Origin: Girardia tigrina
Taxonomy: Eukaryota
DNA: 62,447 nt
Assembly (NCBI GenBank): GCA_001938485.1
Contig: MQRK01217748.1
Span: 67,837 to 130,283, forward strand
Direction: 5' to 3'
Part shown: piece after piece, positions 28,268 through 59,840 of the stretch
Position numbering within the stretch: the stretch's first letter is position 1
How the letters are laid out: each line of letters begins with the position of its first letter
Notes under the pieces: generated by a model
The model's input: only the letters and a program-made list of their open reading frames with translations
Told to the model about the DNA's origin: nothing
Databases searched by the model: none
Program-made: the position numbers and the translations under genes

Positions 28268-29810
28268 CTTCCCCCAGATTCTTCGTCACAAGAATCTATA
28301 TCTACTACATACTCGTTCAAATAATTCGGTTTTCGTCTTTCTCTTTGGGGTCTGTTGCTGATTCCCGATTCACTTTGCTTAACACTCGGAGCTGATTCGT
28401 TGTTATTTTCCGACATGTAATCCGAGTAAGAGTTTCACGGCAGGTCTGGTTGTCTTGGTCGAATACATTGCTCCAATTGCAACAATCATTCAAGAAAATC
28501 ACTCGCAATATTCCTCAAAAAACATCAACAATAACGACAAATTAATCACTAAATCGAAATTATCAGAACTCATACAGCAAATGGAAATAATGGAACAAAT
28601 CCTCACGAACGAATCTTATATCAAATCGATTGCCACAAAACTTAATCGAATTAAAACACGTCGAAATTATCTCAGTCGAAGAAAAGTCCCCCGAACGAAT
28701 AGAGAAATCGATCGACAGAATCAAATCAACAATCGTTATCGAATAATCAATGAAATTATCAACGAAAATTGCCAACGAGAATCGATCAGAGGCCGCAAAA
28801 CGAATCGACAATCGTTCGTGATTATCGCAAATCGATTTCCATCGAACGAAAATAATCGATAGAATCAATTTGATTAATTCAGTGTTGAAATTGAGATATT
28901 TGCGACAAAATAAATCAAATCCGTATATGATTTTTCTTAAATACCGATATTGGAATCAGTAATGAAATATTTCGACATTGGAAATCTGTATTCGATTTAA
29001 ATTACTAGATTTCGATTCGAATTTTACATTTCAATTACTTTTTTTGTTGAATTAAATGTCTACAGTACTCGATTTGTTCTTCCATGAATCTATCTGTGTG
29101 TGTCGATAAAGTGACTGACCTGCTGTTCGGCTTGTAAAATTTTTTTGATGATGTATTGTGATATTCTTCGTGTACCTGAGTGTGTGTGTCACAGTCTGTC
29201 AAATTGAGAGGATATTATTTTGTTAATTTTTTTTGGAAAATTATTATTCATTATTCGATTGTTTAAATCGAGTATTTATTATAAATTGGCGCGAAATTTT
29301 TGTAAATAATTCGAAAGAAAGTCGTCATGGATTTTTTTTGTTGAAACTAATAAAATTTTGTCGATTTCGGAACTTTCTTTTTAATTCAAACGAAATTGTT
29401 TTTCGAATGGCGATAATTTTTGAGAAACGTAGTTCGGATGGTTATGTGTTTCAGGTGGACATCGAAGATATCGGTTGCAAGTTTCCATCGTCCGGAAAAC
29501 CGAAACATGTGTACGAAAGACTCGGTGAATCGTTCACTAAAATCCGGAAGATATTGTTAAAAAAATTATGTTCGATCGACATTGACAGAGTGTGGTGGAG
29601 TTAATTTTTAGATGGTGGAGAATGAGTGCTTGTTGCAGTTATTTGTAACGGAGGACGGGACTGGAATGGTGAGCCACAGAGATATGACGATCGAGATGAG
29701 CGAGGGTAATGGTAGTGAACTTCGATCCTTTTCTCCCCTGCGTCCCGTAGTTCACCCTCCAACGCCGACGCGCCGCAACCACGAGTCCGCTGCGTCCGTT
29801 CTGTTGCCAA
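28268..29810 (-). mobile_element. Putative non-autonomous LTR-element internal region (PBS-like 5' end, PPT-like 3' end)
   Basis: Minus strand starts TGGCAACAGAACGG (~29808) and ends TCTGGGGGAAGTGTTACA (~28262-28279); 29070-29300 and 29715-29810 are homologous to 59085-59835. LTRs not clearly resolved. Confidence 0.45.
29251..29296 (+). promoter_or_regulatory. TATA-like plus E2F-consensus block, identical in two copies
   Basis: TTATTCGATTGTTTAAATCGAGTATTTATTATAAATTGGCGCGAAA; exact reverse complement at 59648-59693; TTTCGCGC is the canonical E2F site. Confidence 0.45.
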
Positions 29811-30159
29811 CAAACACAAAAACCAAATTTCTATTAAAAAAACAAAGTATTATTGGGTACAATTTAACATAAAAATTGGATTATGTTTTAAAATATTTAA
29901 CACGTGGGATTTATATATTAGAGCTCAAGTTTAACTAAATTGACGTTTGAAAACTCTCAAATTTTTTTTCCAATGGAAGCAGCTGTCAGCAATTGGGCCC
30001 ATAAGAATGAGGCCCCCTATTTTTTAATAATTAATTACCCTAACCCCTTTGATTATAATCAAACGCCAATCAATATTTTTTGCCCTAACGAGGGCGGCTT
30101 TCTTTTCAAATGTAAAGATTGATATTAAATTATTATTGTTAAAGTAAGACGAAATAATA

Positions 30160-30830
30160 ATAAATTATTGGACCAATTGTTTTGATGTCGCTACTAAATT
30201 GTCGTGTAATTTTGATCAATTTGCCGATATCGCTGGATCGAATGAACTGTTGACCAGTTCCAATGCGGGTTCGGGTGTCGCCAGTTCGTCGAATTTGCTT
30301 GTCAATCAGTGCTAGACCGGAGATCCGGTTTTGCAGCTAGTTGGAGGTGTCCATTGGGAGTGTGCGGAGATCGAGCCTGATTTTGTGATCGGACGTGGTT
30401 ATGCGCGCTGTTTCTCAGCTTGAAGTACCATAACATCTAGTCGAATTGTATATACAATCGAGTCAGTGAAATGAAGCCTCTGTATGATTTGCGCGTGATG
30501 TTGATATTGGTTTATTCAGATGGAAAGAAAAATCAATTTCTAATATTTGTGTTCAACTCCGATTTAATTTGGCAGTGCGATTTCTGCGCGACGCGGTGGC
30601 GATCTTGGCGCTACCCGAGCGCTGGGAACGGAGTCCAAAAATTGAATTAACTAAAGATGAGCTCTTTATCGATCCCAATGCCGTTGAATTCGATGTAGCG
30701 ATCAATTGGAGATTCAGTCACAATATTATGATGATTCAAAGGGCCCAGCATAATCAAAATAAACCATTGTGTAACCCTGTGGCCTCCAACCAATTCTCGG
30801 GGCAACCTGAGGGTCGGGCGGAACAACTAA
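30160..30830 (+). mobile_element. CpG-rich segment ending in a Helitron-like 3' terminus
   Basis: Hairpin at 30785-30822 (GCAA loop) followed by ACAA-CTAA then T (CTRR|T); last ~90 bp shared with 10065-10154. Confidence 0.5.
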
Positions 30831-30959
30831 TAATGAACAAATTTAGTAAAACGATGCTTCTTTTTATTCGACAATCGATAGTATATAAACTTTTAAGAAA
30901 AAAAACAATAATTGCTAATTAGAATAATAAATAGTCAGACACAGAATGTTATTCAATGA

Positions 30960-31651
30960 AAAAATGTCATATGTAAATGTCATCAGCACAAAATTTCTCT
31001 AAAAAAGTAGAAATTTTCATAGTTTTCTACCGTTCGGCACTTTCGTTGTCGGCCCTGCTCTTTTCATCGTGTTCTTTTTTAAATTTAATATTGTTCCTTG
31101 CTTTCCAACGCGATAACCAACCTTCAGTTGCTTTAACATTGTTGCTTTCCAGTTTTTTAACCAATACTTCTGCTTCGCTTTTAACATTGGGCCATTGATA
31201 TTCATGCCTCTGCCACTAACAATTGAAAAATATTTATCTAATGCTTCTTCAACATCTGGATCCTTTCTCTCACGTTTTCTTTTAGATTTTTCTGGTTGTC
31301 CTTCTTGTAAAAATATTTCCTCATGAAGTTGATTCTCTTGTTGTAAGACACACGATATCGTAGATTTGGGTACACCAGTGATCTCAGCAAGACGACGATA
31401 ACTTGTTTTAGGTGGCTGATTTTTTATTTTATTCAACTACACAATTTTATTAGAAACTGTCAAATCATTTCTTGGCATTTTGGCAATGGTTAATTTTTTT
31501 TAAATAAGTAAACAAAATAAGGTTTAAATTTACTTTTCCAATTAAGCGAAATATTGTCCCAATTAAACAAACAATTTCATTGTTTATTTTTGTTTCGGTT
31601 TTTTGAGATTTGTCCCAAATAAGTGGTGTCCCAATTAAGCGGAATCGACTG
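30960..31651 (-). mobile_element. Pogo/Tigger transposon 5' portion (CENP-B-type HTH)
   Basis: TA-CAGTCGATTCCGCTTAATTGGG TIR at the right end; SYRRLAEITGVPKSTIS...KRKR...DVEEAL...INGPMLKAK. Confidence 0.88.
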
Positions 31652-32014
31652 TATATATAAAAATAAATTATAACCATTAAATCGATATTATTTCTTTATT
31701 TAACGTAAGATAAGATTAATTCATTAACATATTAAAACAATACATAATTCATATATTTATACAAATTCTTTTATATAAAATTTTCTGTCCAACAGAAAAC
31801 TTCTCTTTCATCAAATAACATATAAAATAATTTTCTTTCAAATTAAATAATAAAATAATTTGAAAGAGTTTTCTTTATAATAATAATTACTTTTCTTTCT
31901 TTTTTTAATGTATGTATGCATATATATATATATATATAATGCATTTAAATTGGAATTAAAAATTCCAATTTCAAATTTTCTTTTATTTATTTTTAATTTA
32001 AATAATTTTTGATC

Positions 32015-32450
32015 TGGAACATTCTACTCCCTTTGTTTCGACGAAGGCGAGCAACCCCTCTGTTTCAATCTATCTGAATTCAACAGCATTTACTTGCAGA
32101 TGACACTTCTCTTGATTCTCTTTTTTCAAAATTTCTATTTTGGAGGAAGTCTTTGTTTTCGCTTTGTACTCAAATTTTTTATCCTTTTATTTTCCAAATT
32201 ACAAACATTAAAGTCTCGGACAACAAATCGATTATATACACATTCAAGTGTTGGATCCTTCTCTTCCTTTTAGTACCATCAAAACACTGTTCAAGATTAC
32301 GACGTAATTATTTATATTTAGCTGTAATTTCTTCGATTTTTGATCTAGAACAACCTCTGAGTCAACTTTTTATTTGGTTCATTTATCGACTCATAATACA
32401 TAAAACTATTTAAATTTTCGATAGGTTAATGGTCAAACTCCAGAAATGGG
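32015..32450 (-). mobile_element. Possible LTR-retrotransposon 3' internal remnant
   Basis: Minus-strand purine tract AAAGGGAGTAGAA followed by TG; no intact ORF. Confidence 0.3.
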
Positions 32451-33339
32451 CACAGTTTTTTATCAGTTATTAAAAACTGTTTTACTGTAGTTTACAAAAA
32501 AATCCACAGAAAAAGACCAAGAAAAAATTAGGTCGATCTTGGTGGACTCTGTGATTTCATATGCAGAATTGATACTGAATTGAAGCATGGTTTTTAAAAA
32601 AGCATTTTTTTATTTTTTAGGTGTATATCATACAATAATGTTAGACAAATAGCAGGACGAATTTGTAAAACTTTTAATCAATTTTCACTTTTAAAAAATT
32701 ATTAATAATTTGAAATTTTGAATTAGAAATGAATTAAGAAAGATTTATATTAAAAAGTTAATTCTTTTCATGAAATTTGAGAATGGTTTTAGAAAGAAAA
32801 CGTGAAACTTTGTTAAAATGTCTACTTTTTAAAAAATAACAAAAAAACAGACTTATTTTAGAAAGTCATTCATGGAAAATATTCTCCGGCAAAATTTTTA
32901 TTACAGATTATGAATTAATGAGTTTTCAAAGAATAAGGAAACTTCATTATAATAAATTAGTGATACGGAAAAAATAATAGTGTTATCTTCGAATTAAGGG
33001 AGTTTGCCCCAAAAAGAACAGAAAAGGTTCTTGAAATTCCAAATAGTGTATTGTTTCAGATCGTCAAAAATAATTTTTGTTTTCTAGAAATTTTAAAAAT
33101 GTTTAATTTTTATCCTATATTGTAATTTAAACTTAAGCCCTTTTAGTCTCTGATTTTTTTTCGCAATAAAAAGCCGTTTAGGTAGAATATGGGTCATAAT
33201 GTATTACTAAGTAACATAAAAATATCAAAGAAATTGATAATTTTTAGAAATTTGAAAGAAAAATAGACAATTTGTATGACAAATTACAAAAAAGTATATA
33301 AAAATATTAATTCAGATGAAGCTTTTTTGTTGATGCAAC

Positions 33340-33780
33340 TATTCTCGTAAATTTTCAATTGTATGGAATGTTTCGAAGCATTCTGTCATACAAAGTACTT
33401 TATCGCATCGTTTGCAGTATTATGAACTTATCACATATTTATTCTTTTCTCGAATAATATAGATATAATATCGTTTCCTCTGTAAACTTCCATCTGATTT
33501 TGGAATTAATCCTGAAAAATTTCGTTTCCCTCAGTCTTGAGTTTGTATCTACCCTTGATGACCCTGCTTCTTCTATATGATACCTGTCAAAACTTTCTTT
33601 CTAAATTATCTTGAAATCTAATAACGACAATTTTTGCTTTCTTTTGTGCTTCTTCATAATGTAGCAGTTATATACCGACATATCCATCAGATGTAAAATA
33701 TTTTTTTCGACTAATTTTCAGTTTTTCTTATACTCTTTGTGAAAGACATATCTACCTGATCCCCCCAGTCATGCGGTTTT
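33340..33780 (-). pseudogene. piggyBac transposase C-terminal fragment
   Basis: Minus strand reads SIRKT...KIFLHLMDMSVYNCYI and the cysteine-rich tail YCKRCDKVLCMTECFETFHT. Confidence 0.75.
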
Positions 33781-35139
33781 TACAGTATTTAATTTATTCT
33801 TTACTAATAATTATTCAAAATAATTTCTTAAAATAAAAATTAAAAATAGAAATCAGCCATAAGCCATCATTCTAAAATCAATATACATATGCAAAACACA
33901 AAATCTATAACACTAAAAATAATTATTTATTTCAATGTTTAAATTAGATGCTAAATTATACAATCTCTGAATTAATCCATTTCACATCTTTGTAATAAAT
34001 AATATTACCTACAGAGGTTAAATTCCATAATATTTAACATTTTTGGAAATGAAAGAGAAACTCTTAATGAGAGAATATCAATGATGGATTAAAAGGCAAT
34101 TATTTAAATATTATCATACGAATGACTTTTAATTATATTTCAAATGAACATAATTTATTGTTAACTAATAAAATTAAAAATCCTAATGTATTTTATACGT
34201 ATTAAATTTAAAAGAAGTTAAATTAAAAAACTAAGAATATCAAATGAATTCCTCATGCAATTCATATCAGTCTCCCCCGATTGCACGGATAGCTGAGTAT
34301 CGTAGAGACTACAGTACTAGCATTGACGTACATGGTAGTGAGCCATAGACTCTGTATCGGGTAGAAACTATAAATATACATGTAGTGCTTCTGTAGAGTT
34401 AATTAAAAAACACCATTCCATCAATTTTATTAACCAAAAAACAATTAATTAAAATTGTCTTGTTTTAATAAACCTATTTTGATGTAAATTATTTTAATCT
34501 ATGTTTACTGTGTATTTCTACGATTTAATGGAATAAAACTTCATATGAATCTATATCGATTTTTTTATTTATCTCATTTTTTCTATCTGTCTCTTGTGAC
34601 TATCAATGAATTTTGATGACAACGCTTTAGAGCCGTCCGGACCACTACACAATACAGAGCCCATTGACTTTCTCGCACGACTTTAGATGCAAGAATCCGA
34701 GCTTTCAGTGCACAGGTACGCTTGAGTTTCCCAGTTAGAAAGGACCAATCATGATTTTTCGTACCGTGATTCTGTACACACATTTCTTACAATCAGTAAA
34801 GGGACACTGAAATATCGCCACATCAGTTGTATTACTTAATGGAAAGTCGAGAAACACCTTGCATAATTCTCATGAAATCAATTTATATTCATTAATAGCA
34901 TGCTTATATTAATTAATAATTATATTGACTTTCGTTTGAATGTTTAAATCAATTGGAACTCGTATTATCGTCATTTCTTTTAAACTCACTTAAAAAAGTA
35001 TCCTACTAAAATTTGAAAAATAAAATTTTGAAAGGAAATACATTAAAAAGTTAAATTAAAATACTCAAATGAAACTCAAGTTATTTTTTCACGAAAGCTA
35101 ATACGAAACCTAATTAACGTAATACATTTACACAAATTA

Positions 35140-36056
35140 CGAGGGCGTTCCGAAAGTAAGTGGAAAAAATGGAGACGACACCACAAGAAAGCATTTATTG
35201 AAGGAATACAATGTCATCATCCTCATCACCTTCTGGAGATAATCGATTAACACTATGCCTTTACAGTCCCAATAGACTGTAATCATGACCTTCCCGGCAA
35301 ATAGAACTGTCTTTGCCTTCAATGGTGGTTTCTCTCCAGTTTTGCACCACTGTTTCGATTGCTCCTTGGTCTCTGGTAAGTAGAAAGGAAGCCAAGTCTC
35401 ATCCACAGTGATGATTCGCTTCCAGAACGATTCACCAAGGTCCTCGCACATTTTCAGGAACTGGCTGCATATTGTAACGCGATTTCCTTTTTGCTCCACA
35501 TTGAGAAGTCTTGGCACCCATTTGACTGTCAGCTTCATCATATTCAGGTGCTGCGTAACAACTGCATGTACACATGTTACAGATAGGCCTGTTATCTCCG
35601 CCAACTCGCTAATGGTAAGGCCGCGATATACATTGATGGTCTCCGACACTTTTTCCACATTTTCTATCGTGCTCGTCGTTGCTGGACGTCCACTCCTGTC
35701 CTCGTCGTCCAAGGATTCACGTCCATTTTCGAATTGATGCACCCAATTGTAGACGGCAGAATTTTGCAGGGCTCTTCCTTGAAACATATTTGATAAGCGG
35801 CGCACAATGTCAGACACTGGAGTATCCTCTTTCCAAATGAAAAAGATGATGGAAAAAAATGAAAAAAAATGAAAACACTGCCTATGACAGTTTCCTCTAT
35901 GCTGCTCACATGTTGCATGGACCAATGCCACTTTTGCTCGATTTCTATTGGCTAGTAAGTACATCACGCCACCACGCCATATGTCCCTCTGTAAGATGCA
36001 CACACACGCGCACACCCGCATATAAGTATTTCCACTTACTTTAGGAACGCCTCTCG
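35140..36056 (-). mobile_element. Internally deleted mariner (irritans-like), TA target duplication
   Basis: TA-CGAGGGCGTTCCGAAAGTAAGTGGAAA / TTTCCACTTACTTTAGGAACGCCTCTCG-TA; DEDRSGRP, WVPRLL, TVDETW, KVMITVYWD, then deletion before the second catalytic D. Confidence 0.93.
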
Positions 36057-36363
36057 TATATATTTTAATAATTTTAATTACTATTTTAAAAATATTTTAA
36101 CAGGAATAATAAGAAATAATAATAAAAACAATAATCCTCGAAATATAGTTTTAAAATATTCACATTCTTTTTACAGTGATTTTATTAGCTCACTTCCTCT
36201 GTGTATATGTGTGTCACAAATTTGTTAAACAAATTTTCAACCGCGTCCTGATTTGATTGAGCTGTATTTTGACGAAATGTGTATTCCAGTTATCAATACA
36301 TGAATCAATTTAAAATACTACAATCTGAATTTTAATAAGTTTGTTTTTACAAAAATAGATTAA

Positions 36364-36586
36364 CCCTTTCCTGGCTGAATTAAAAATCCTTAAATCACTT
36401 TCTGCAACTTTCAAATGATAAAAATAAAAGGACGGTTGACAAAATACGTGTTAAAATATTTTTTCTTTAAAAGAAAAATCTTCCTTATTCATCAGGATAA
36501 AAATTTTATTCATATTTTTTCCATAGATGCCTATAAAATATTAAAATGAAACATGATTCCATATGACATCAATAGTCAGGAAAGGG
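36364..36586 (+). mobile_element. piggyBac-type MITE, TTAA target duplication (copy 1)
   Basis: TTAA-CCCTTTCCTGGCT...AGTCAGGAAAGGG-TTAA; second copy at 55681-55913. Confidence 0.88.
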
Positions 36587-38149
36587 TTAAATAGAAAAAT
36601 TAATTTCAATTGGTATTCTTTTATATATGTCAAAACTTTATGAATTTTCGGTATTTTTTATAATGAATTTTTATATTTCATATTAATTATAGTTTATTAG
36701 ATGAGGAATTTGTCATGAGGAATTTTCAAAAATAATTTTCGATTTTTTTGAAATAGAGGTATTCCATTCATTTCTATAATATTTTCGTCTTAAAAAAGGT
36801 TTTGAACATTTACGGTGCGACAATGGCAATTATAAAAACAGAATTTGCAAATAAGTAATTGATGGAAGATTCAAATTAATGAATCAATTAATTATAAACA
36901 TTTGTGTGTATTGAAATAATAATAAAAATTTTTAAAAGGTTAATTGAGTTTTGGTTTTTGCATTGAATTCGAAATCGAAAATTTGAAAACAATAATTGAA
37001 AATGGCTAACTAATTGATGCCAAATTATTCGGTCACATATTTTCGAATCAGACCGAATAGTTCGAGATATCACCGTAAAACCCTAATTGTATCACACCGA
37101 AACACAAAAAATACTTATCTTAACTGGTTGGTTATTTTGTCACTCCAATTGGCTCAATCAAACAACTTGTTCGAGTCGTAGATCCGAAATCTTGATTCTG
37201 AATTTATTAAATTGTTGAAAATTGCGAATTCGTTAATTGATTTATGAAGGATTTTTATTTGCAATTGTTAAAAATGTTTTGATTTACTAGTTTTGCATTT
37301 TGCTTCATTATTGGGTTTTATAACATTAAATTTAAAATTATCATTTTCTGAGGAAGTTAAAATTTTGAAAATGCTAATAAAATAGGGAACACGAACTGAT
37401 ATTAAAGATAAAATTATAATTATAATTATTTTTTCTATGAAATATGAAGTTTTAAGAATCGGTCAGGTTTCATGTGGCTAGAAATGGGTTGATAATAAAC
37501 ATTAGATATAATTTTATTTGTAAAAATGAGAATTTTAATGCGATGTAATTGCTTGATGATTTGAAAACCAGGTAAGCGTTCTCTTTGTCGAAAAACATTT
37601 TGACGAAATTTAATTTATCAAATATCATTGTTGATTAAAATTAATATGAAAAATAACATGAAAAGAAATATGAAAATAATTATGTTAAAAGGATGAATTT
37701 TTTTTATTAAAATTTGTTTTGTCAAAATCTTAATATAAATTTTTAAATTGACCATTATAATTCTTTAGATATACAAAAGGATGATTAATAGAGAGCTCAT
37801 CGAATTTATTGGTGAAGTAAAAGCAAGGGTATGTTTATTAAAAAGACAAATCTTTTGGAGAAAATGATTATTGTAAATGTATAATCCGTTAATGCAATGC
37901 CCGTCTTCATTCAAGAGGAGACTTCATAGTTAAAATAATTTAATAACTCCAAATAGCAGCAGTAATAAACTCTCGTCAAGATAAATTACAGTGTTTAAAT
38001 TAGATATGCCTAACGGATTATCGATGTTTTTTTTAATATATATATATATATATACAGGGCCGCCGCGTTGGTAAGAGGTGCCTTTGTGCCAGATTATTTT
38101 CAGCGCCCTTCCCTGAACCCCCATGTCAAAAACTATCTTCACATCACAT

Positions 38150-39270
38150 CTGAAGATTCACCACGATTAATTATTGTAGAAACATTTGTAGATATATCTT
38201 CATAATATATTCCTTCTCTTTTAACTAGACCATATTATACTCAAATGATTTGTCGAAACAGAAGGCATATCAAGAACTAAAACGATGATGGGCCTCAAAA
38301 CACATCAGTGCTTCCTAACCGTTATCAACAAACAGTTAATGGACATCGTTTTTTATTATTTGAAAATGATGATTTATTAATTTTTTCAAATGACAGAGTT
38401 TTTTCGATTCTTGCGGCATCTTCTCATATTTGTGGTGATGGTAATTTTAGTGTCCCACCTACTGGCTATTCACAATTATATACACTACATTTACTCATTA
38501 CTAGAGGTGGGCAAGTTTAGCGTTTAAACGACCGTTTAAACGTTTTCATTTTTTAGTACGTTTAAACGTTTAGCGATTTCTAAACGAGAGTATAATTATT
38601 AAGTTTGTATTTCAAAACTCACAACATGAGTTGTACTTTTTTTGAAACTTTAATCAGGCTGCCTTAGGCCTAATCATTTGTAAAGAACACATTGTCCCAA
38701 TCTATTTAGCTTTTTCGTGGGACTAAAAATGCAATATATGAAATTGTGTGAGGTACTTTTACAATTTACTCATGCTTGTTTCTGTTAAATCAAACTCATT
38801 TTTGTATCAGGCACATTTGACTTGACACAGCTGTAACTTTATTTTCGGCTAGTTCTGAAAATTTAAAATAGTCTTTACCTGAGTGAATTTATAAATCTTT
38901 TTTCTTGGATACACTTTCTCTAATGCAATATGTTTATAATGAATTTTAGTGATTTTTTTTAAACATCTTACCATCAAGTATTTTTAATATGTTAAATAAA
39001 CATTATTACTGAGTATATTATAAATAGTAATTGAAAAAATAGTTATATCCATTTTTATACGGACAGTACTGTACTTGGCCAACAGATTTTTTTTATCTTT
39101 TGTAAAACGGAAAATTACTATTACATTTTTTTAATAAATTTATTATGTTATTAGAAACTATTTCAATATTGATTTTGAAAGGGGTGCGATTGCAGCTCTA
39201 TCTAATAATGTCCCAATCAATATTCAAACATGGTTGTTTTTTCACCTTTCTCAAAGCTGTTTCAAATTGC
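38150..39270 (+). pseudogene. MULE/Mutator transposase remnant, interrupted
   Basis: TVNGHRFLLFENDDLLIF...CGDGNFSVPPTGYSQLYTLH (38308-38500), and later IDFERGAIAAL and FFHLSQ (~39165-39260). Confidence 0.75.
38502..38590 (+). mobile_element. hAT-type terminus inserted in the MULE remnant
   Basis: TAGAGGTGGGC followed by repeated CGTTTAAACG subterminal motifs. Confidence 0.5.
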
Positions 39271-39314
39271 AATGTTTATAATTGTGATTTTTACATAAAA
39301 TATTGATTCTTTTA

Positions 39315-40712
39315 CAGAGTTTTTCAATTAAAATCAGAAATGTTTCAATTAAAATCAGAAACGTTTCAATAAAAATCAGAACTTATTTTAAAGATAATTA
39401 AACTTTAATTTTGTTAAAAAATATAAACGTTATAACAACAATATATTCAACATTAATGATACACAGTAATTTACAAATATTTCTTCTTCCTAAGTTTTAT
39501 TTAATTAAAATTCTTCACGTCTCATTGATTTTAAAGCATATGGACGAGTATCATTAAAAAACACAAAACAATCTTCTGATGTGATTGAATCTTTCCGTGT
39601 TTGAACAGCTTCCATCAATGTACTTGCACATACAACATTTTTAGATTTGATTCCATTTTTCCATTTTGAAAAGCATTCTTCAATCGGATTTAATTGTGGA
39701 GAATACGGCATAAGGAATTTTAAAACATGTCCAGCATTCGTAATTGCTTCACAAACTCCACCAACTTTATATATTGCGCAATTATCCATTATTATAACCT
39801 TTTTTCATAGTTATTGTCAGCCAAGAAAGAAAGCAACCTGTTTATAAACGAAATAAAAGTGTTTCCATTATTAGAGCCTTCCAATACTTCATATTTTAAC
39901 AACCCCATTTTACAAATAGCCACCGAAATTGAAAAGTTTTTACTGCGAATTGTTCTAACTGTTTTCTTAGCAGGCGTTCCTAGCTGGCTTCGTCCATAAG
40001 ATTTTCTCATTGAACAATTAACACCCGCTTCATCCAAAAAAATAATATCTTCTTCATTTAAAGACAAGTAGTAATTTGCAAACTCAAATCGTGATGCTAT
40101 ATACGATGCTGTATTTCGAGATTCTGGGACAATACTTACGCGTTTCAAAAAAAAATTAAATGCTTTTATTGAACGATAAATTGTAGATTTTGAAGCATTA
40201 ATGTTTTTTCCAACGCCAAGTCATTTTTTAACAATCCAAGTGTTATCGAACAATCAGTTTCGATTTCATTTTAAATAAAATCCACATGTTTTTGGTTAAG
40301 AATTGGAGTTTTATGACAACGGACTGGTAGTGAATTTATTCTACCACTGGCTTTATAAACTTTCACAACAGTAAAGACGGTTTTATAGTTCACATCGAGC
40401 TCACTTGAAATCGTTTTAAGTGTTTTTGCATCGTCGTATTTACTGCATATCAATTCTCTTTCACGATTCGAAAGCTGTTTTTTTCTTTCCATTAAAACCA
40501 TGGGCTTAGATTTTATTTTGTTATACGAATTATACATGTAAAAATAAATGTAGATGAACAATTTTTCAAGATGTCTTTCAATAATTGCTTTCATAAATAA
40601 CATTTATAAATTAAACGATTAATTTATTTTAAAATTTAATTAAATGATTTGATTTTGATTTCCACATTCTGATTTTAATTGAAACGTTTCTGATTTTAAT
40701 TGAAAAACCCTG
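39315..40712 (-). mobile_element. Tc1/IS630-like DD34E transposon, TA target duplication, frameshifted
   Basis: TA-CAGAGTTTTTCAATTAAAATCAGAA / TTCTGATTTTAATTGAAAAACCCTG-TA; IIFLDEAG, MDN, PYSPQLNPIEE with 34 residues between D and E; N-terminal HTH at 40271-40500. Confidence 0.92.
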
Positions 40713-41808: not shown

Positions 41809-41839
<31 letters not shown>

Positions 41840-45139: not shown

Positions 45140-45196
45140 TATAATCAAATTATTTATTTATTTTTCATATATTATATATATATATATATATATATG

Positions 45197-48769: not shown

Positions 48770-49385
48770 GCTTTACACCTGGGAATACTCTAAGCTTACC
48801 TTACTCCGAGGGTTTTAAACACCTCAAGAATTCGATCTTGAAATCAACAGATATCATTTTAAATTTAAAAATTACTTCTCAATCATTTAAAGTTGAGAAT
48901 ATGTTTTGCAATAAATCACATACTCCTTTAGGATTGTGTTCGGACATTGTTTATCAATACACATGTAATGGGTGCGATGCCACATACATCAGAGAGACTG
49001 CCCGTCATCTCTGCAAACGAGTCCAAGAACACAGTCAAAAGGGGGGGAAAGAGTAATATTGCTGAGCATAAAAAAACGTGTAAATGTAATAGGAGCATAA
49101 AGGATTTTAAGATTTTGTGCAAGCATTTTAAAAAATTATTGGGAGAGAGTCATGTGAAGCATTGTTGATAAGATCATGTGATCCAAAAATCAATATTCAA
49201 ACAGCACTCTCAACTAATTTGTTAAGAGTTTTCGATTAGACTTACGTAAGTGATCACATAATCATTCATTTCTTATATAAAAGCAATAAAAAAGAACATA
49301 ATCAGTGATCTGATGATGACGGTTAAACCATCGAAATATATTATCCTAAAATATATTTTTAAATGGCGTTTATTTGTATTTATTT

Positions 49386-49390
<5 letters not shown>
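48770..49390 (+). mobile_element. Penelope-like 3' fragment (GIY-YIG + pLTR) nested inside the hAT element
   Basis: DIVYQYTCNGCDATYIRETARHLCKRVQEH...SNIAEHKKTC, then EALLIRSCDPKINIQ; TATATAAAA at ~49274 precedes a hammerhead motif. Confidence 0.88.
49307..49345 (+). ncRNA. Minimal type I hammerhead ribozyme motif
   Basis: GAT-CTGATGA-T-GACGG-TTAAA-CCATC-GAAA-TATA-T-T-ATC; palindromic ATATAT stem III. Confidence 0.72.
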
Positions 49391-49430
<40 letters not shown>

Positions 49431-51869
49431 ATGAACCAACTCAAAAATTATCACTAACTGCGACCCAACTTGAGAATATTGTTGTTTACATCCATCTGGA
49501 AAGGTTGACGACTGATAACTTAAACACTTTGATAAATTGTTTTGATTAAAGTAGTTATACAATCATTAATTTTATTTAAGAAGGCAAAAGATGCATGAAT
49601 GCTCTAAGTTTGACGAAATATACATTTATTATTTGATTTTTGAGTCTGATTGTATTTATTAGTATTTTGTGGTCAATATTCATTAAGTTTTTTGATAGTT
49701 AAATAAACAAGATTTAACCTTTTACGTTTCTATATGTGAATCTGTTGAATACATAGATTTATCTGTAAGACTTTTATTGATATTTAGATTGAACAAATAA
49801 AATATATTACAGTAATTACTAATTATTATAACTAAAATCATCATATATGTATGTTCTTCTCTAATGATTACAGATATGAAATTTGAAATTTTTACTACCA
49901 ATTTTATGTAATAATTAGTTATAAACATTTAAAAATCACTAATTTTTATTTTAATTATAACTACTTGTACAACCATACTTAAAGTCATAAAATATTTTAT
50001 GATTTGACTGAGACAAAAAAGAGACAAAACCCTTTAATCTTAAAACGTGTAAGCCACTCGACTCTTAAAATATTATGAGTTGAAAAAAACTCGAGTTGAA
50101 AAAATAGTGACTCGTAAAATGTAAAATATGATAAGTGACTTGACTGGACCCTTTACCCGTAAAAATATGTAAAATGACTCGACTCGACTCGTAAAATATG
50201 TAAAGTGACTCGACTCGTAACTCTAAAAAAAATTAGTGACTCGACTCGACTCGCGATTCGTAAAAAAATTAGCGATTCGACTCGAGTTGAGAAAATAGTG
50301 ATTTGACGACAACACTGTTTCCAACCATCAAATAACAAAATGTGTTTTACATTTGTACTACGTCTACAAACCTAAAAATTCAACTTGATGATTTTATAAA
50401 AGTACAATTTTGGATGTTGTTTATTGAAATTATGTCTGAAATAAAGCCAAACGGATTAAGTCTATTAAAGTTGTACTATGAAGTTGCAGAGAGTTACTGA
50501 GAGATTTATTTTACTAAGGAACAGGACGAAAAGTCGGCCGTAGACAGAAATGAATGTACTTATACTATTCAGTACAACTGTACAAGAATATTAATTTTAA
50601 TTTATTTGTCTCAATAATGCGCAAGGCTGCTCATAAGTGCTCGCGAGTTGATAAGAACGAATAAAAGCAAATGATTCAATTCAGAATTAAACATTCCTTT
50701 TAGTAATTGACGTCAATGAAAGCAATTAATTTTAATTATAATCAGTCTTTAATTAATACTTTCGTCACCTACATTCTACTTCAATCAAAACAAAAAAAAT
50801 CATTTATTTTAAATTAGCATTTACATCAGACTTTATATTTTATATTAATTTGAACAAATAATTAGTTGTCAATATGTGATACTTGGATTAACGTAGCTCA
50901 AATGGATGAAATAGTCATTTATAACCATTTATAATCATTTATGAATATAATTAGTATTTTATTATATTATTTATTTATATTTACGTATTATATTATTTTT
51001 TTGTAGTTATGGATTTGTTGAAACATGTTTTTTAATTTTTAATAAATATTTTTAAAACACATTTATAATCAATATATTTTTTATAACGGCATATGTTCAG
51101 GTTTGACGATAAGTTCACAAATAAAAAGTTGTATGTGTATTAAAAGTATAAAAAGTTTATTTATTTAACATGAATGAAAGTTAAAATTTTAAGATAAAAA
51201 AATAATCAGAGTTGTGAGGATTTTGGGAAACGAGTATAAAGTTTTGAATTAAATCTAAAAAATGAAATTTCAAAAACATTAAAAAATATTTCAAAAACAT
51301 TAAAAAATATATCAAAAATTAAAATAATAAGAATTGAATGATTAGAATAAAATAAGTTCATATAAATTTTTATTATAAAAAATGGAGATATATTATAAAA
51401 TAATTTATAACAAAAACTTTTTAAATTAAAATATAAAAAATATTTTTAATAAAATTTGAAATAGTTTAACTATAAATTTTAAAATGTTTAAAATATAAAA
51501 TAGGTTTTTAATGTTAAATATAAATTAAAAAAAATTAATCAGGTTTGAAGTAAATTATTTTGTATTAAATATGAAATAATAAATTTAAATAAAAACTCAA
51601 GATTTCTAACTAAATTACAAAATAAAACAGATTGAAGTAAATTAAGTTAAAATTAAAATTTTTCAAAAACAATAAAATATTCTAATACGGCAAAATTTAA
51701 TAAGAATAATAAATATTAAATTATTTATTTATATTTAAAATTCATTATTTTATATATATAAAAGGTTTGCACTAGAAATAATGAAAAGTGTTCCTTGGAA
51801 ATTTATTCAAAAAACTTGTTTAAAAATATTTTATTTTATTGTTATTAAATAAAAGTTTTCGGTATACTA

Positions 51870-52722
51870 CGTTTGGCCTCCAATAAAAATTTGATCATTT
51901 TGTATAAATAGTTTTTGTATATTTTATATTATTAATTCTACTCGATAACACACAAAAATGATTCTGACACTTATATATATAATATATAAAAATTCAAAAC
52001 AATTTTCTAGAATTAAATTAAAATAATTTATTAAAAAATTATTAAATATAACTAAAAGAATTTTAATAAAGATTTTTTCGAAACAAAATTTAAGAATTAT
52101 TTAAAAATAATAAACTATTTACTGAAAAAAATTATTAAAAAAATTTAATATTTTTTTTAAAATTAAAATAATTTATTAATTATTATTAATTATTATTAAC
52201 ACACGTTAAAAGTTATTCTTTCCATTAATCTATATTCTTAAACTGATGGGGACCCAACAACAAATACACCAAAAATAATAAATAAAATAAATAATTATAA
52301 AATAATAAAAAATAAAAAACTATGGTGCGTAACACCATATAAAAGATAAAAATTTTTAGATTAAAAAATAGAAAAGTATACAAGCTTTTACAATACAAAA
52401 CAAGAATAAGAATACAAAAGTATAATTTAATCCATCATGTGTTGCATCCTATAGTTTTAATTTTATATTTTTGTTTACTTTATAATTACTTATATTATTT
52501 ATTATTTTGAGTGTATTTGTTGATGGGTCCCCACCACTTGAAGAATATTAATTAATGGAAAAAATAAAAAATAATAATAATTTTTTCAGTAAGTATTTTA
52601 TAATTTTTAGATAATTCTTAAATTTTTTATCGAAAAAAATCCTTTTTTTAATTTTTCAGTCATATTTAATAATTTTGAAATAAATTATTTAAATTTAATT
52701 CTAGAAAATTATTTTGAATTTT

Positions 52723-52754
<32 letters not shown>

Positions 52755-52855
52755 GTGTCGGAATCGTTTTTGTGTGTTATCGATTAGAATTTGTATAAAT
52801 AATATACAAAATCTATTTATAGAAAATGATTTAAGTTTTTATTGGAGGCGAAACG
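51870..52855. repeat. ~1-kb imperfect palindrome (foldback/MITE)
   Basis: CGTTTGGCCTCCAATAAAAA versus TTTTTATTGGAGGCGAAACG at the ends; GGGGACCCAACAACAAATACAC versus GTGTATTTGTTGATGGGTCCCC internally; spacer ~100 bp. Confidence 0.88.
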
Positions 52856-53454
52856 GCGGTCAACTTCTTATCTTTCATCAACGAATTATCACGAACATAA
52901 CATGAGTTAAATAAATTTATTATATTAAAACATAACTGATATTTGCTGATAGGATCAGAGTTCGAATAAAAATTATAATAAACTAAAAACCATTTAACGA
53001 TTCCTCTTTTTTATTACAAGTTTTTCTGATAACTTAATTTATAAATGTGCAAACAAAATCGATATTAGTTTTTATAATTTGTAATTGAAAATTGGTTATA
53101 AAAAGTTTTTTATATATTATGTAGCATCCGTTTAATTTAGTATATATATAAAAGCATAATTTTGATTATTTTTAGCAGTTTTATGGAAAATATTTGCAGT
53201 TATAAAAGTCGTTTATTGGAAGGAAATGGAAACACAATTAATAATAAAATAATTTTTAAATTACATGCAAATATTAAATGATCCTCTTTAATGGATATAT
53301 AATGCTTTTAAAACATGTAACGAAATATAAATCATGACTTTTTTAAAGGAAATTATAAAATTTTAATTACGTCCGAACAAGTTACTAGTTCTTCATTCCC
53401 GTCCATACATCTGTGCAAGCTATATTTTAGTTACGGGATGTAATCCTTATTAAC

Positions 53455-53900
53455 AACATCACAATTTGAATGCAAACATTTATTGACAACACAAACAGAT
53501 TCTTCACAACAATTTTCAGAGGTCATCTTTCTGTGATTAATATAGTTTTTGATTAATTATTCAAATATGAAAAATACAATGAATTGGAAATTTTAATATT
53601 ACATTTTAATTTCTCATAATTTTATTGGATAAAAAGACATTATGTAATTTTTTAAATAAACGTTAATTTTTAAAATATATTAAATTTAATAAGTTAAAAT
53701 CGTTTAGTGAAAATATTAATAAAATTCATAATTATCAAACTTTAATTAATTAATACTTAAAATTAATATCATTAAATTAATTGCATTAGAATTACATAAT
53801 CAATCAAATAATATATCAATCCCATCTGAGTAGGAGAGTCACGAATCTAAACAGCATACAAACAACAAACTTACAGCATTCCAAATTATCCCTCACAATC
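53455..53900 (-). repeat. Dispersed AT-rich repeat, copy 3
   Basis: Reverse complement of 23605-24052. Confidence 0.85.
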
Positions 53901-55341
53901 CTTATGTTAACTGATTTACTATTTATATATTCTTACAATTTTTGCTGATGAAAATCTAGCTGTTTTAATTGTCTTTAGTTAAAGTGAAAAAAACGTTTTC
54001 TACGTCCAGAAAAGATATTTTCGTTTATATACTTATGTAGTTTGAAGATGTCTCATGTGTTGATACTGTTAGTGGCAGTTATGCTGCTGTCGTTATTTGG
54101 CATTTCAGAATCCGAATTCATCTTTAACACAAAATAATACATATATTTATACAAATTTCTACTTAATTTAATCATTTTGCTGAACTAAATGTACTAAATT
54201 TTGTTTAAATTTAAATTATGTCTCAATTATGACTTTTATATTGTAAAATTTATTTTTAAATAAAATTATTAAATTTTATTTATAATACTCTATTTTCAAC
54301 ATCATTTCATGTTTAATTTAATGTTTAACTTTACTTAATTTTCATTAAAAATTGTTTTGTAAAAATATTATAAATTTTATCAATTTTATTATTTATTTTA
54401 AACTTCTTATTTTAAAACTTTTATTAAACATTTTCCTATTCAAATAAGAAATTTTAATTAATTTTAACTTTTTTTTGGTTTTAATAATGATATCATTTTT
54501 GTCGATTTTTTAAACAACAATTTTGAACTTTTTTTAAGTTGTAAAGTTTCTGTATTTTTTATGTTTTAAGTATGTATTTAATTTTTGTTAAAATTTTAAA
54601 TTAAATAAAATCTATAAATTATTATAACTAAATCGTCATAGATATTATATACACTTATGATGAATAATGTAAATATTTAATAAAAAAGTAATAAAACAAC
54701 ATTTCGCTAATTTTTTGTCTTGGAAGTTTAAAAGGTAATGCTCAATTTCTTTCCAAGATATCAAAACATGCTTTTATAATAATAGAAAGGGCGTATTTTG
54801 TTATTTTTCTACAATTTTCCAAACGATTTTCAAAACATTTAGATTTTTATTTTCCCATATCTTTTAAGGAGTTCTCAGAGAAGCTTGTTTCATTTGACTG
54901 TTGCATTTTCTTTACCGTTTTTTTTGTTATTTTTAAATGTAACAAGAAATATTCAGTATAAAATATAATGTAACAGTTATTTACTTAGATGTTTAATTTA
55001 TTTATTTTTATAATAAAAAAGTATTCAAAATTGACACGTTTTTGTAAAATCCTTTAGAATTCTCGATACCTGAGAATATAAAATGTAGTGATTCCATAAT
55101 TTTTCATTTTTCTGAGTCTGAAAGTAAAATTTGGTAATAATTTAACTTCTCATGTTTGTTTATTTTAGAGTTCATGGAATTTTAAAAACAATGTCTGATG
55201 AAGTTTAACTGAAAAGTGTCATGAAGTATTTTGTGAAGTAAAATGGGACTGCCGATGAACTAATGAACTTAAGTAACATTTTCAATGAAGATGAAACATC
55301 TTTGTTGATGTACTTGTCTGAATAAAAGAGAGAAAGTACAC

Positions 55342-55680
55342 TATCCGCAGTACACCAATGTATTCTTCAGCAGTGTAAAATGTTGAATAATGGGCTGTAA
55401 GGAGCTTATTGATCTGTCGTATTTACCTTACAATATCACAAATGTCCGTATATAATCTATTACAGTGACTTGTGATTTTGGTAAGCCTATTAATCTCAAT
55501 GTTTTGTCAAGGACTACTCCAAGTCAATATGAACCAGAATTGTTTCTTTCACTGAGATTAATTTGCCTCAATCATAAATGTTTAATTTTTTTTCATTCTG
55601 AGAAAATTGTAATCACTTGTTTGAAGGATTTAAAATATAAGAATTTTGTTACACATGTTTTTGACTATATTTTGTATTAA
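55342..55680 (+). pseudogene. Divergent compact TATA-binding-protein-like pseudogene
   Basis: One frame: YTNVFFSSVKC*IMGCK...VRI*SITVTCDFGKPINL...YEPELFLSLRL...LIFFHSEKIVITCLK, matching both TBP half-repeats (IFxSGKxxxxGxK; YEPELFPGL); two in-frame stops. Confidence 0.75.
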
Positions 55681-55913
55681 CCCTTTCCTGGCTGAATTAA
55701 GAATATCAATTTAAACGCACCAAAAGTATGTAGTAAAATATATGCGAAAGCAGTAAAGTAATTAGAGAAAAAATTTAATTGACAACAAATATATCTTCTT
55801 ATCGATCTTCCTTATCGATCTAAATAAAAAATGTTATCCCTATTCATTCATAGATGGCTATACAAGTCTGATATATATTATGATTCCATATGGCATCAAT
55901 AGTCAGTAAAGGG
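55681..55913 (+). mobile_element. piggyBac-type MITE, TTAA target duplication (copy 2)
   Basis: TTAA-CCCTTTCCTGGCTGAATT...AGTCAGTAAAGGG-TTAA. Confidence 0.88.
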
Positions 55914-55996
55914 TTAAGTTGTATAAGTTGTATTTTAAATAAATTGTAATGAATATATGTTTTTATTAAAAACATAAAGAAACATGTAACCAACAA

Positions 55997-56029
<33 letters not shown>

Positions 56030-56775
56030 CGTCTAAAACATTTGAACTGTGCTGAATGCACTCTGTAGGCATCATGAATGCATAGCAAAAGCATGATAAA
56101 GGCAACGTGGTAAATAGCACTTTTAATGATTTCAGACAAAAAACATAAGTGAAAATACTTAGTGAGTACTGCATACTAAAGTTCTGCAGTCTAAAAGTGG
56201 TACACGTTGATAGTAGCAGATGTTTCTTAGGAACTACATTCAAACAATTCGAAAAAAAGTATAATTTTGACATTCAATATTCAAGCCCGTATCAACATCA
56301 AGCAAATGATCAGATAGAGAAATTATTTCGTACTTTTTGAGACTGGATCTACTGTTGTATCGAAGATAAAATATTTTGCAATTGAGAGACAAGTCTTCCA
56401 CAAAAGAATTCATAAAGTACTCAACTATTCAGAAAACAACTATGAATAGCCTTGAAGAAGTTGTATTTGGTAAAAGAAATCAGCATAGATTGATTTTTAG
56501 GGGTAAAAAGAAGCTAAAAGAGCATCATTGAGAAGCCAGAACTTTAGAGAACATACAGGACCAGAAAAAGAAAAAAATAACTAAACAGAGTTTTTAAATC
56601 GGTGACTTCGGAAATGGGAGGATCGAAAACAAACAGAAACAGAAGAGACATTGTTGCATTTATATTGTAATAAAAAATAACGATCGAAGTTACCGGCTGC
56701 GAAAAAGTGACGGAACAGAATTTGTTTGGAATTTAGAGTGACTTACCATAACCGCGCGGGGAGATGTAAGTAGGA
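56030..56775 (+). mobile_element. Gypsy integrase remnant with polypurine tract
   Basis: VHVDSSRCF...YSSPYQHQANDQIEKLFRT (rve motif SSPYHPQxNGxxER); GCGGGGAGA-TGT at ~56756-67. Confidence 0.75.
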
Positions 56776-56776
56776 A

Positions 56777-56813
<37 letters not shown>

Positions 56814-58229
56814 TTTGTTTGTAATGAGAAAACTGATTTTATTATGTCTGGGTGATTGTGAATGTGTACCAAAGAGAAGGCTTTAGAAATGTGAGTCATT
56901 GCAGCAACAATTTTCTACATAATATCAATGCATAAATAAAGGTTTTTGATTGAATAATTGTGATATAACACCCAATTTATCTTGCCTTACTTCGTGACTA
57001 TACTTATATTTTAAAAAATTTATTCATAGAATTCATTTCAGCGCAAAAGTCGAGCTAAGGAATAAGTATGCAAATTCATCACGCGTCTTTGGAATTTCCA
57101 TTCCCGACTTTTACCACTTCCCTTTAGTTATAGGAAAGCAAATGTCTAGAGTAGTTTTATTTTCAAAAAATGGTTGGATGCAAAAAGCTTTGTAAATTTA
57201 ATTTGTATCATTCAAAACTTTTTCCACAAATAATCAATAATTTCTAATGAATGACTTGAAAAATTTAATTTAAAAATATAATATTTATTACTTTCTTTAG
57301 GAAAAAGTTAATTATACAAAATTTATTTATCATATTTTTTTTACCTATAGTTAAATTTAAAAAATATTAAATAATTATTTTTATAAAATAAATAAGAATT
57401 TATGTTTAAATTATTAAAAATTGTATGTTTAATGAAAAAAAAATGAATTCAAAATTTATTAAAAATCAAATTTATATTTTATATTGCAGTTACAAATTCA
57501 GAATAGTGTTTTATATCAATTATTAAAAAAATAATTTGATACGGATATTTTGACAAATTAAATCATTCGAAAATTTATTCAAACAATTAATTTTAATAAT
57601 TTTAATTTATAATTTAAAATAAGCAATTTTAACAATTATTGTCAATTTATTTATTTTTCTAAAACTTTATTTATTAAAATTATATTTTGCAATCACATTT
57701 ATTTTTATAATTAATATTTTATAAAAATGATATTCAAATTTTTTTAAAATTAAAGAAATATTTTTTAATTGTTTATTTTTTACTTAAATACTAAAAATAT
57801 GTTTAAAAAGAAGGGAAAATGTTTTCGTTTTCTGCCAAAGAGAGATTAATGTATTTTTATTTTATTTATATGTAAAATATTTATAAAACCTATTATAGTT
57901 TTTGTTCATGTAAAATATTTTTGGAGCATTCTCAAAAATATATAACTAAAAAATAACAACTTTGTTTTGCATTTAATCTGAAATATTTGAAAAATAATTT
58001 TCCAATCTGATAATCAGTTATTTCATCTTGAAAATATAATTTAAAATGAAACAAATGAAATGTTTTCCTTTGAAAGCCATTATTAAAAAACAGTGATTAC
58101 TGGAAAAGTTTTTTAATTTTAAATTTATTTTATTATTATTTCATAACATTTTCGAAAAAAAAGCATTGAAAAAATAGAAACACATTTTTTTAAAATATAT
58201 TTGCCTATTATTATTACTACGTACGTGTT

Positions 58230-58560
58230 TACTAATTTAAACTTTGGATTAAAGCTACTGCATCTGCAAAAAATGTTACTCCTTTGAGGGAAACAAAATT
58301 ACTTCAAGAACGGCCAGGATATTGTTTTAAAGGTTTTCTGCAAGGGTAAAATTATTTTATAGAGTGAAACAATATTAAGTAGATTATCAAATTTGAATAT
58401 CGATGAATTGGAGGCAATTAAAGTCCGCTTTAAAGTGTCAACAGCTTGAAGAAGTGTTTGAATTAAGAGATGATACAATACGGAAGCATTTACACAAAAT
58501 TGGAAAGATGTCGAAATTTAGTGAATAGATACAACACGAACTAACTCTAAATAAATAACG
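58230..58560 (+). pseudogene. Very decayed mariner N-terminal remnant
   Basis: TIRKHLHKIGKMSKFSE*IQHELT resembles the WVPHEL region. Confidence 0.5.
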
Positions 58561-59084
58561 GAGTTAAAAACGGAGGTGCCCACATGTTTTACAAGTAAAA
58601 TAAACTGTTTTTTAAAAATATAATTTACAAATTATTTTCTTGTTGGGAATATGTTATTCAATGTGAATGTGAGTATTTAAATAAATAAATTATTTCGTGT
58701 CAAAATTGACGAGTTTTTCGTTCTTAGTTTCAAAAAACGACAGAACTCTTGGTTAAATTATTTTGGTTGAATGAAATTATGTGCTCGTTATAGATTTCCT
58801 TTCTTTAAATTTGGAACGGTTTCCGATTCTTTATTTTTTAACCATATATGTTTTTTTTTCTACCCTGGTTCATTATTGTCCTCAAAAACTGAATTGATTT
58901 GATGAGTTTTACTTCCCTAGTGGTACATTACCATTTCCGCGCTTTTTATATCATACATATGCATACATATGCTGCACTAAATTCTTGTTACCATCAATAC
59001 TTTAATTGCTCACAAATGAGTTTTCGAGAGTAAAAAGAAATGTACTGGGATTTTCTGAAAAAAAGTAGATGTAGGTGACAGAAC

Positions 59085-59840
59085 GGGCGCAGCGGGTATG
59101 TGGCTGCGGTGTGTTGGCGTTGGGGGATGATCTGCAGGACGCGGGGGCTCAAATTCACAATCTCACCGGGAGGGGAAGCTCAGACTTCCAATCCGCGACA
59201 CTGGCGAGATGAACACGGACGCCCAGAAAACCAATAACACATCATCACGACTATCGATCATAATACTTGTCCAGTCTTCCGTATTAATTGCGCCAGGATG
59301 TCTTTTAAATTCATCTAAAAGATCACTTGGAAATACCGGTGAGTGAATGATGCCTTTGTATTTTTATATAAAAGCAAGAGTTTTTTCATCTTCATATTTT
59401 TTAAATGAACCATCGTGATAAATGCACACATTTGATTTAATAGAATCTTTCTCCACGATATCATCCCTTTCGATCAAGTAATTAACAACATATTGATAAT
59501 GCAATTCATTTCCATCGGAATGACAACACAACGATCGATTTGCGATTTTCAATGAAAAACCCTTGAACGCACACAAATCTTTATTTTTTATCAAAACAGG
59601 AACAGATATGGTGACTTCTAGAATCCACATACAAATTTTCAAAACATTTTCGCGCCAATTTATAATAAATACTCGATTTAAACAATCGAATAAAGCATAA
59701 TAATTTTCAAAAAAATAAGAATTAACAAAACTAATCTCCGATCAATTCGGCAGACTGTCACACACTCACTCGAGCCACGAAGAATATCAATAACTCCAAA
59801 ACACATCGATAGAGTCATGGAAGAACAAATTGAGCACATT
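59085..59840 (+). mobile_element. Second copy of the TATA/E2F cassette (inverted relative to 29070-29810) with different cargo ORF 59364-59642 (-)
   Basis: GGTGACAGAACGGGCGCAGCGG...GGCGTTGG block and 59648-59835 match copy 1; the middle does not align by eye. Confidence 0.7.

Follow-up and report, generated by a model that had tools for sequence, protein, structure and literature searches.

Two related units in a 62,447-nt stretch of the genome of the planarian Girardia tigrina (assembly GCA_001938485.1, contig MQRK01217748.1, positions 67,837 to 130,283 of the forward strand; hereafter the window) are, we are highly confident, solo long terminal repeats (LTRs) of one BEL/Pao retrotransposon family. 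We also consider it probable that these LTRs are pieced together from short constant parts and fragments of sense-strand host mRNA, captured by template switching and carried along as neutral cargo. A preliminary description of the same DNA had taken the segments 29070-29810 and 59085-59840 for a two-copy cassette of a non-autonomous LTR family with an antisense, swappable slot. Its idea that the unit is mobile, related to LTRs and built of a constant promoter-like block plus cargo that can be exchanged stands, but the proposed anatomy and orientation do not, as the units are whole solo LTRs with left boundaries far beyond those suggested (Table 1) and one of their modules alone is present at 150 or more places in the genome.

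Family members were searched for in the animal's own genome (1.43 Gb, a fragmented assembly), which yielded at least 49 places for the upstream block and at least 40 for the GC-rich right-end block. The right boundary of copy 1 is sharp, with homology ending at 29812 and unique flanking DNA beyond, and its left and right ends are common to at least 20 loci and at least 40 places, respectively. From the fetched loci we recovered 24 distinct end-to-end copies, defined by the end pattern alone, which range from 821 to 2457 bp and include a single one with a polypurine tract (PPT). Among the 23 without a PPT or primer-binding site (PBS), the 5-bp target-site duplication (TSD) is perfect in 12, has one mismatch in 3 and two or three mismatches in 8, whereas random pairs gave perfect matches in 0% and one mismatch in 2.6% of cases. 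The flanks of copy 2 likewise have neither PPT nor PBS. Pairwise alignment confirmed the common upstream block (85%) and the common GC-rich end (77%) of the two copies, and also the differing middles, which align poorly, consist of non-homologous DNA and map to different host genes. Mosaics of U3 and U5 (the unique regions on either side of the R region) are common, the U3 of copy 2 being combined with the middle of copy 1 at L007, L008, L012, L015 and L021.

The link to BEL/Pao comes from relatives with the same ends and core. A purine run stands immediately 5' of the left end in 53 matches, compared to 7 for a control pattern, and DUF5641, the tail of the BEL/Pao integrase, was identified upstream of the PPT at L125 and L149, the latter with an LTR that contains the promoter core. 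A full-length relative of about 10.2 kb was found at G000:C254813. Its LTRs are 97% identical, it has a 5-bp TSD, a PBS follows the 5' LTR, and the BEL/Pao placement rests on its Pfam domains DUF1759, DUF1758, RVT_1, Peptidase_A17 and rve. By inspection, its LTR has the left end, the core motifs and the end block in common with the window LTRs. At L247, an LTR end that is 87% like the last 53 nt of copy 1 is followed by a PBS and then by a leader homologous to that of C254813, and the same succession of right end and PBS was seen at 20 further junctions. Because of this PPT and PBS context, with C254813 and L247 as the bridge, both window copies are read as solo LTRs in the direction of the TATA and E2F-like motifs. 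The PPT then lies 5' of the left end and the PBS 3' of the right end, so that the slot is sense and not antisense.

The full-length relative agrees with the published profile of the Belpaoviridae (LTR-PBS-gag-pol-PPT-LTR; protease, reverse transcriptase, RNase H and integrase in this order; an 18-nt PBS, a PPT of about 10 nt and a genome of 8-10 kb; PMC8742986) in layout, domain order, PBS and PPT lengths and genome size. It departs from the profile in that the family LTRs are 0.82-2.46 kb rather than 0.2-1.2 kb, in that the primer is likely tRNA-iMet rather than a tRNA for Arg or Gly, which is a tendency and not the basis of placement, and in the presence of host fragments in the LTRs and of a ubiquitin-like piece ahead of gag. 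This ubiquitin-like frame (Pfam E 5e-26) lies directly ahead of gag in two relatives (L172:4189-4521 and L185), and capture would thus reach the internal leader too. In the PPT-linked LTRs L121-L149, sequences diverge right after a 15-nt common end and an ATG is located 13-18 nt from the end in 16 of 28, which suggests that host 5' ends were attached there at an A-run with the ATG; few of them have Pfam support.

Four other readings of the units were rejected. For a minus-strand element with its PBS at 29810 and its PPT at 28270, the PPT is foreign and the true PPT and PBS context lies elsewhere. For a Ginger-type or other DNA transposon, the terminal inverted repeat is at most 3-4 nt and a PPT/PBS context was found. 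A miniature terminal-repeat retrotransposon (TRIM), or another two-LTR non-autonomous unit, would contain a pair of short LTRs in direct orientation together with its own PBS and PPT; there are no internal direct repeats here, the PBS-like block is a reverse-complement end and the PPT is foreign. Finally, the middles are not diverged homologues, as their alignment score is barely above that of shuffles and their host sources differ. The PPT-TG noted earlier at about 28270 is indeed present (28261-28275, minus strand), but it is part of a foreign piece of 332 bp nested in copy 1 (Table 1) and not of the unit; sister LTRs span this region without the piece, with 28130 joined to 28461. The piece had no Pfam match and is presumably Gypsy-like. 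The same foreign retroelement end was also seen at L055:209-493, in the opposite orientation and joined to the middle of another LTR of the family.

That host mRNA was captured is indicated by the two cargos of copy 2. The cargo in U5 corresponds to four collinear exons at G000:C185717 (81-91%) and a fifth at C82155; GT-AG introns, roughly 50 bp and 5.6 kb long, are gone and one exon is skipped. Attempts to name the host gene gave no Pfam, homologue or atlas match, and a single unnamed relative was found among 1.84 billion proteins; we take the gene directly upstream of it at C185717 to be symplekin-like. The cargo in U3 contains a homeobox (Pfam Homeodomain, E 1.6e-12), is 93-94% identical to two host exons with GT/AG borders and has two introns missing, and it ends in an A-rich run where the host sequence diverges after AATAAA. 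We assume that it is Lbx-like, a label for which the homologue search was empty and a search of the PDB returned generic homeodomains. Both cargos are intron-free, partial host mRNAs with element sequence on either side, which is the configuration expected of LTR-mediated retroposition (Tan et al., 2016; PMC5131818).

The cargo in U5 of copy 1 resembles stathmin, which was the first atlas match (0.94). A sister copy, L327, to which the copy 1 cargo is 70% identical, matched Pfam Stathmin at E 1.9e-4, under the curated cut-off. The stathmin-like piece was scored at 150 places among 368 candidates, which is a lower bound. Across 24 LTRs with both core and end block, the slot content fell into 8 clusters, and the named sense cargos in sister LTRs (Pfam or PDB) are an RBMX2 RRM, U1A, SAICAR synthetase, PRMT_C, a kinase, IBR, Tim10, CCDC93_N, a dynamin-like GTPase and, as a weak match, a methyltransferase. 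With the homeodomain and the weak stathmin match included, 12 named cargos are sense and 1 is antisense, although earlier frame scans took in fewer antisense than sense frames. A balanced scan of the PPT-linked LTRs gave host-type matches for 2 of the 86 sense frames and for none of the 82 antisense frames, one more sense match being a mariner insertion. A piece combining U1A and IBR is present in both LTRs of C254813. A rule by which 5' ends of mRNAs would be placed in U5 and 3' ends in U3 was considered and dropped; the homeobox piece fits it, while CCDC93_N in U3 contradicts it.

We hypothesize that the cargo entered during reverse transcription, in steps drawn from the anatomy of the LTRs and from the template-switch model in the available part of Tan et al. 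(2016; PMC5131818). Minus-strand synthesis would begin at the PBS, copy U5 and R, jump to the 3' R and copy U3, and during the U5 or the U3 leg the reverse transcriptase could change over to a co-packaged host mRNA and then return. Such a double switch would leave a sense, intron-free fragment inside the LTR, which the remaining reverse transcription would copy to both ends. The captured piece could then be amplified with the element and reshuffled between subfamilies, and recombination between the LTRs would leave it behind in a solo LTR. The parts to be kept would be the attachment (att) ends, the promoter core, R with its AATAAA and the GC-rich end that pairs with the PBS and leader; because only these are needed, everything between them should be free for replacement.

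Another possibility is that the cargo of these same solo LTRs entered as DNA, from processed pseudogenes or free cDNA via break repair or gene conversion, and was amplified later. The unnamed host gene of copy 2 does have a processed copy that stands by itself, with an open 185-codon frame, at L210 (G000:C246725), and the 7-10 nt of shared sequence that we see by eye at the junctions of the copy 2 U5 cargo and at the stathmin-to-RBMX2 join would fit repair too, as would the antisense cargo and the nested foreign retroelement piece. However, the LTR cargo of the unnamed gene represents a different splice form from L210, repair gives no reason for the predominance of sense cargos, and no duplications flanking the cargos were seen at the junctions examined. 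We therefore regard entry as DNA as unlikely. The sense bias would also follow from exon trapping or read-through, if elements in or beside host genes spliced host exons into the LTR transcript, which was then packaged, and the homology of the homeobox cargo extends from a host exon acceptor to a poly(A) site. Yet both junctions of the copy 2 U5 cargo lie within exons of the host gene, with the donor some 14 nt beyond the 3' junction, the joins between cargos have shared sequence rather than splice sites, and the same join positions vary from cargo to cargo, which leaves exon trapping very improbable.

Among the parts that are kept, the 46 nt singled out in the preliminary description as invariant are identical in the two copies (46 of 46 nt) and contain the dyad, TATAAAT and GGCGCGAAA, as claimed. 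In 21 close copies this block is 91% identical to copy 1, a figure biased upward by a first search query that contained the 46-mer, compared to 82-83% for three adjacent 46-nt windows; it is thus more conserved than its flanks, but not invariant. Ninety distinct right ends offered 700 nt of upstream sequence, and 33 of them had the dyad (0.8% in shuffled sequence), a few rows being haplotype duplicates or anchored on an upstream dyad. After the dyad, the E2F-like motif follows with at most one mismatch in 18 of 33 cases (2.4% at random positions) and as the exact 8-mer in 9 of 33 (0.4%), TATAAA in 8 of 33 (3%), the GTCGCCAT-type motif in 20 of 33 (4%) and AATAAA in 21 of 33 (19%). The E2F-like motif is thus conserved in the sequences compared, the TATA motif less so. 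The established anatomy of an LTR runs from promoter to R region to poly(A) signal, and the predicted sites have the layout expected of it. The 46-mer may be the promoter core, and its E2F-like site could favour expression in dividing cells. Contigs from three runs, the RNA status of which is a guess, cover cargos with host-type letters and host continuations; one of these contigs spans a related promoter core and is uninformative on LTR start sites or strand.

The cargo itself apparently decays neutrally, its copies being passengers rather than working genes. The homeobox copies are frameshifted relative to the host in 19 of 19 cases, the unnamed-gene copies are intact in 7 of 13 over the short stretch tested and broken in 6, and of 52 stathmin-like copies 27 have neither a stop nor a frameshift in a stretch of 57 codons and 25 are broken. 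Private (singleton) mutations have ratios of nonsynonymous to synonymous changes (N/S) of 0.82, 1.16 and 0.91. Shared differences have lower ratios of 0.33-0.65, at least some of which would be the expected result of purifying selection that has acted on the host lineage after capture. The stathmin-like piece has no host reference, and its ratio of 0.65 for mutations in at least three copies may reflect some selection in active lineages. In place of the variable accessory open reading frames proposed earlier, we thus find broken host mRNA pieces with neutral substitution patterns. A selected, E2F-driven slot for interchangeable accessory proteins in dividing stem cells could account for the frequency of the E2F-like motif after the dyad, for the ATG that many LTRs have 13-18 nt away from their end, and for the intact stathmin-like pieces and their ratio of 0.65. 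Nevertheless, we give it very little credence: the actual slot is sense and within the LTR, where in a 3' or solo LTR it is located behind AATAAA, the broken copies are numerous and the singleton ratios close to 1, and the exact E2F-like site and TATAAA each follow only a minority of the dyads.

At the other end of the LTR, the GC-rich block resembles a PBS on the opposite strand, as the preliminary description had it, but it is the LTR's own 3' (U5) end and an inverted copy of the true PBS and leader. The inverted repeat between the U5 end and the PBS-leader is real. Pairing energies between the window ends and the L247 and L244 leaders are -57 to -86 kcal/mol, compared to means of -41 to -52 for shuffled sequences; three of the four pairs beat all 100 shuffles and the fourth equals the best shuffle. 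In single folds of 8 family junctions, the stem between U5 and leader was preferred every time (z from -1.3 to -6.6), and across 17 junctions 77% of cells pair, compared to 32-50% when slid. Covariation at these 17 junctions was not above that of shuffles, and the RNAalifold alignment fold prefers a local PBS-leader hairpin over the long stem. That the repeat might gate the primer is a guess. The PBS is 18 nt long, and at five loci (L245, L248, L249, L251 and L252, on G000:C26746, C144372, C200103 and C216490) the LTR end is followed by a 41-nt complement of the 3' half of a tRNA up to the CAT anticodon, within an 850-bp tandem unit; this looks like primer tRNA that was copied beyond the normal stop. 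The primer is likely tRNA-iMet, an initiator assignment that we presume from its features. No intact tRNA gene was present in 50 loci (30 + 20), and Rfam gave no tRNA match for the half copy. Several unrelated LTR families (L217-L246, L355-L374) have the same PBS, with 537 pattern matches compared to 2 for the control, and in many of these LTRs the PBS can form a hairpin with sequence on its upstream or downstream side.

Several of our observations weigh against the interpretation proposed here. Concerning the identity of the units, the target duplication of copy 2 is imperfect, with 3 of 5 positions matching, no full-length element whose LTRs are exactly those of the window was found in the animal's own genome, and the connection to BEL/Pao runs via relatives; the LTR of C254813 gave no BLAST match to either window copy. 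The exact pattern of LTR end plus TGG had 7 matches, 0 of which were a PBS, whereas a looser end pattern did recover PBS junctions. The dyad was detected upstream of little more than a third of the right ends. Concerning capture, intron loss could be shown for two cargos only, both in copy 2, the host gene of the stathmin-like piece was not found in the own genome, and most U3 frames of the PPT-linked LTRs had no Pfam match. The one antisense cargo, HPS5, runs against the strand rule, and the microhomology was assessed by eye at three junctions, without a null.

Table 1. Coordinates of the two solo LTRs and their parts in the window (position 1 is its first nucleotide).
Feature	Position	Strand	Description
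Copy 1, solo LTR	27516-29812	+	2297 bp; TG...CA ends; perfect 5-bp TSD at 27511-27515 and 29813-29817
Copy 1, nested foreign piece	28130-28461	-	332 bp; end of the pol-like frame of another LTR element, PPT 28268-28275, 138-bp TG...CA repeat 28130-28267
Copy 1, U3 promoter-like core (inferred)	29251-29296	+	TCGAT dyad 29255-29271, TATAAAT 29280-29286, E2F-like GGCGCGAAA 29288-29296
Copy 1, R region (inferred)	29297-29375	+	GTCGCCAT-type motif 29319-29328, AATAAA 29349-29354; cargo starts shortly downstream
Copy 1, U5 cargo	29407-29553	+	5' coding piece of stathmin-like gene
Copy 1, shared tail module	29574-29734	+	Follows various cargos: stathmin-like, RBMX2, kinase
Copy 1, GC-rich U5 terminus	29735-29812	+	Complementary to PBS and leader of full-length relatives
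Copy 2, solo LTR	59070-60597	-	1528 bp; same family as copy 1; TSD 3/5; starts TA
Copy 2, U3 cargo	60018-60467	-	Spliced 3' part of host homeobox mRNA, frameshifted
Copy 2, promoter-like core	59648-59693	-	Identical to 29251-29296
Copy 2, downstream of core		-	GTCGCCAT-type motif 59617-59608, AATAAA 59585-59580
Copy 2, U5 cargo	59252-59558	-	Spliced mRNA piece of unnamed host gene
Copy 2, GC-rich U5 terminus	59070-59147	-	By sequence comparison with copy 1

Elsewhere in the window, the segments 30773-30826 (plus strand) and 10065-10118 (minus strand) form a 54-bp common tail (83%) that closes two unrelated open frames and matches the LTR end of L218, which precedes the same PBS; judged by this match, both are probably solo LTRs, belonging to a sister family whose middles can be exchanged. 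A large exon of a rhodopsin-family G protein-coupled receptor (Pfam 7tm_1, E 1e-60), which we take to be amine-receptor-like, is located at 24135-25403 on the minus strand. An identical 300-bp direct repeat (11420-11719 and 14982-15281) lies in a decayed reverse transcriptase element and flanks a mariner-type copy at 13726-14792.

LTR-mediated retroposition has been described in animals, with Pao BATUMI and mosquito BEL18 among the carriers, and in the Drosophila set the retrocopy replaced part of the internal open reading frames "in all cases", according to the accessible part of Tan et al. (2016; PMC5131818). Compared to the cases described there, the window LTRs and their relatives are similar in having partial, intron-free host mRNAs, multi-gene chimeras, short shared sequence at the junctions and secondary amplification. 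They are different in that the cargo lies within U3 and U5 and in both LTRs, persists in solo LTRs, is found at 150 places or more for one piece and is subfamily-specific. Gene-capturing TRIMs and maize Bs1, in the portion available of PMC4717578, likewise contain exon-only fragments of several genes and have 5-bp TSDs, multiple copies and units of 1.2-1.5 kb, but their fragments are internal, between two short LTRs, whereas here the unit of 1.5-2.3 kb is one LTR. The Burro elements, as far as they are covered in the part of PMC6431247 available to us, are also planarian LTR elements with host-like domains, the ubiquitin-like one included. Burro is Gypsy-like, larger than 30 kb and has the domains in frame in the polyprotein, whereas the elements studied here are BEL/Pao, about 10 kb long and have broken cargo in the LTRs; a comparison proposed in the preliminary description thus shows that the full-length relative, with its Pao domains, is not Burro-like. 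Our literature search retrieved no report of host mRNA capture, serial or single, inside BEL/Pao or planarian LTRs, although Repbase entries, subscription papers and supplements may hold one, and the available parts of PMC11410931, PMC10680173 and bioRxiv 10.64898/2025.12.11.693146 do not mention it.

Whereas gene capture by animal LTR elements has been described as a rare internal replacement, here the LTR itself is a repeated capture site, and fragments of housekeeping and regulatory genes have therefore reached copy numbers in the tens to hundreds, every copy preceded by a promoter-like core. One could speculate that the LTR serves the BEL/Pao lineage as a standing trap for host mRNA: with housekeeping-gene sequence covering both ends, silencing of the element by small RNAs would be costly for the host, or hundreds of solo LTRs would give rise to small RNAs directed at those host genes, and a promoter of the E2F type would couple the cycle to dividing stem cells. 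We find such a benefit doubtful. The patchworks are in any case a natural archive of template switching in two defined steps of reverse transcription and a sample of the mRNAs that are present where the element replicates. They also represent a possible route of cross-talk between Piwi-interacting RNAs and host genes, and in the annotation of such genomes these solo LTRs will pass as chimeric genes or paralogs.

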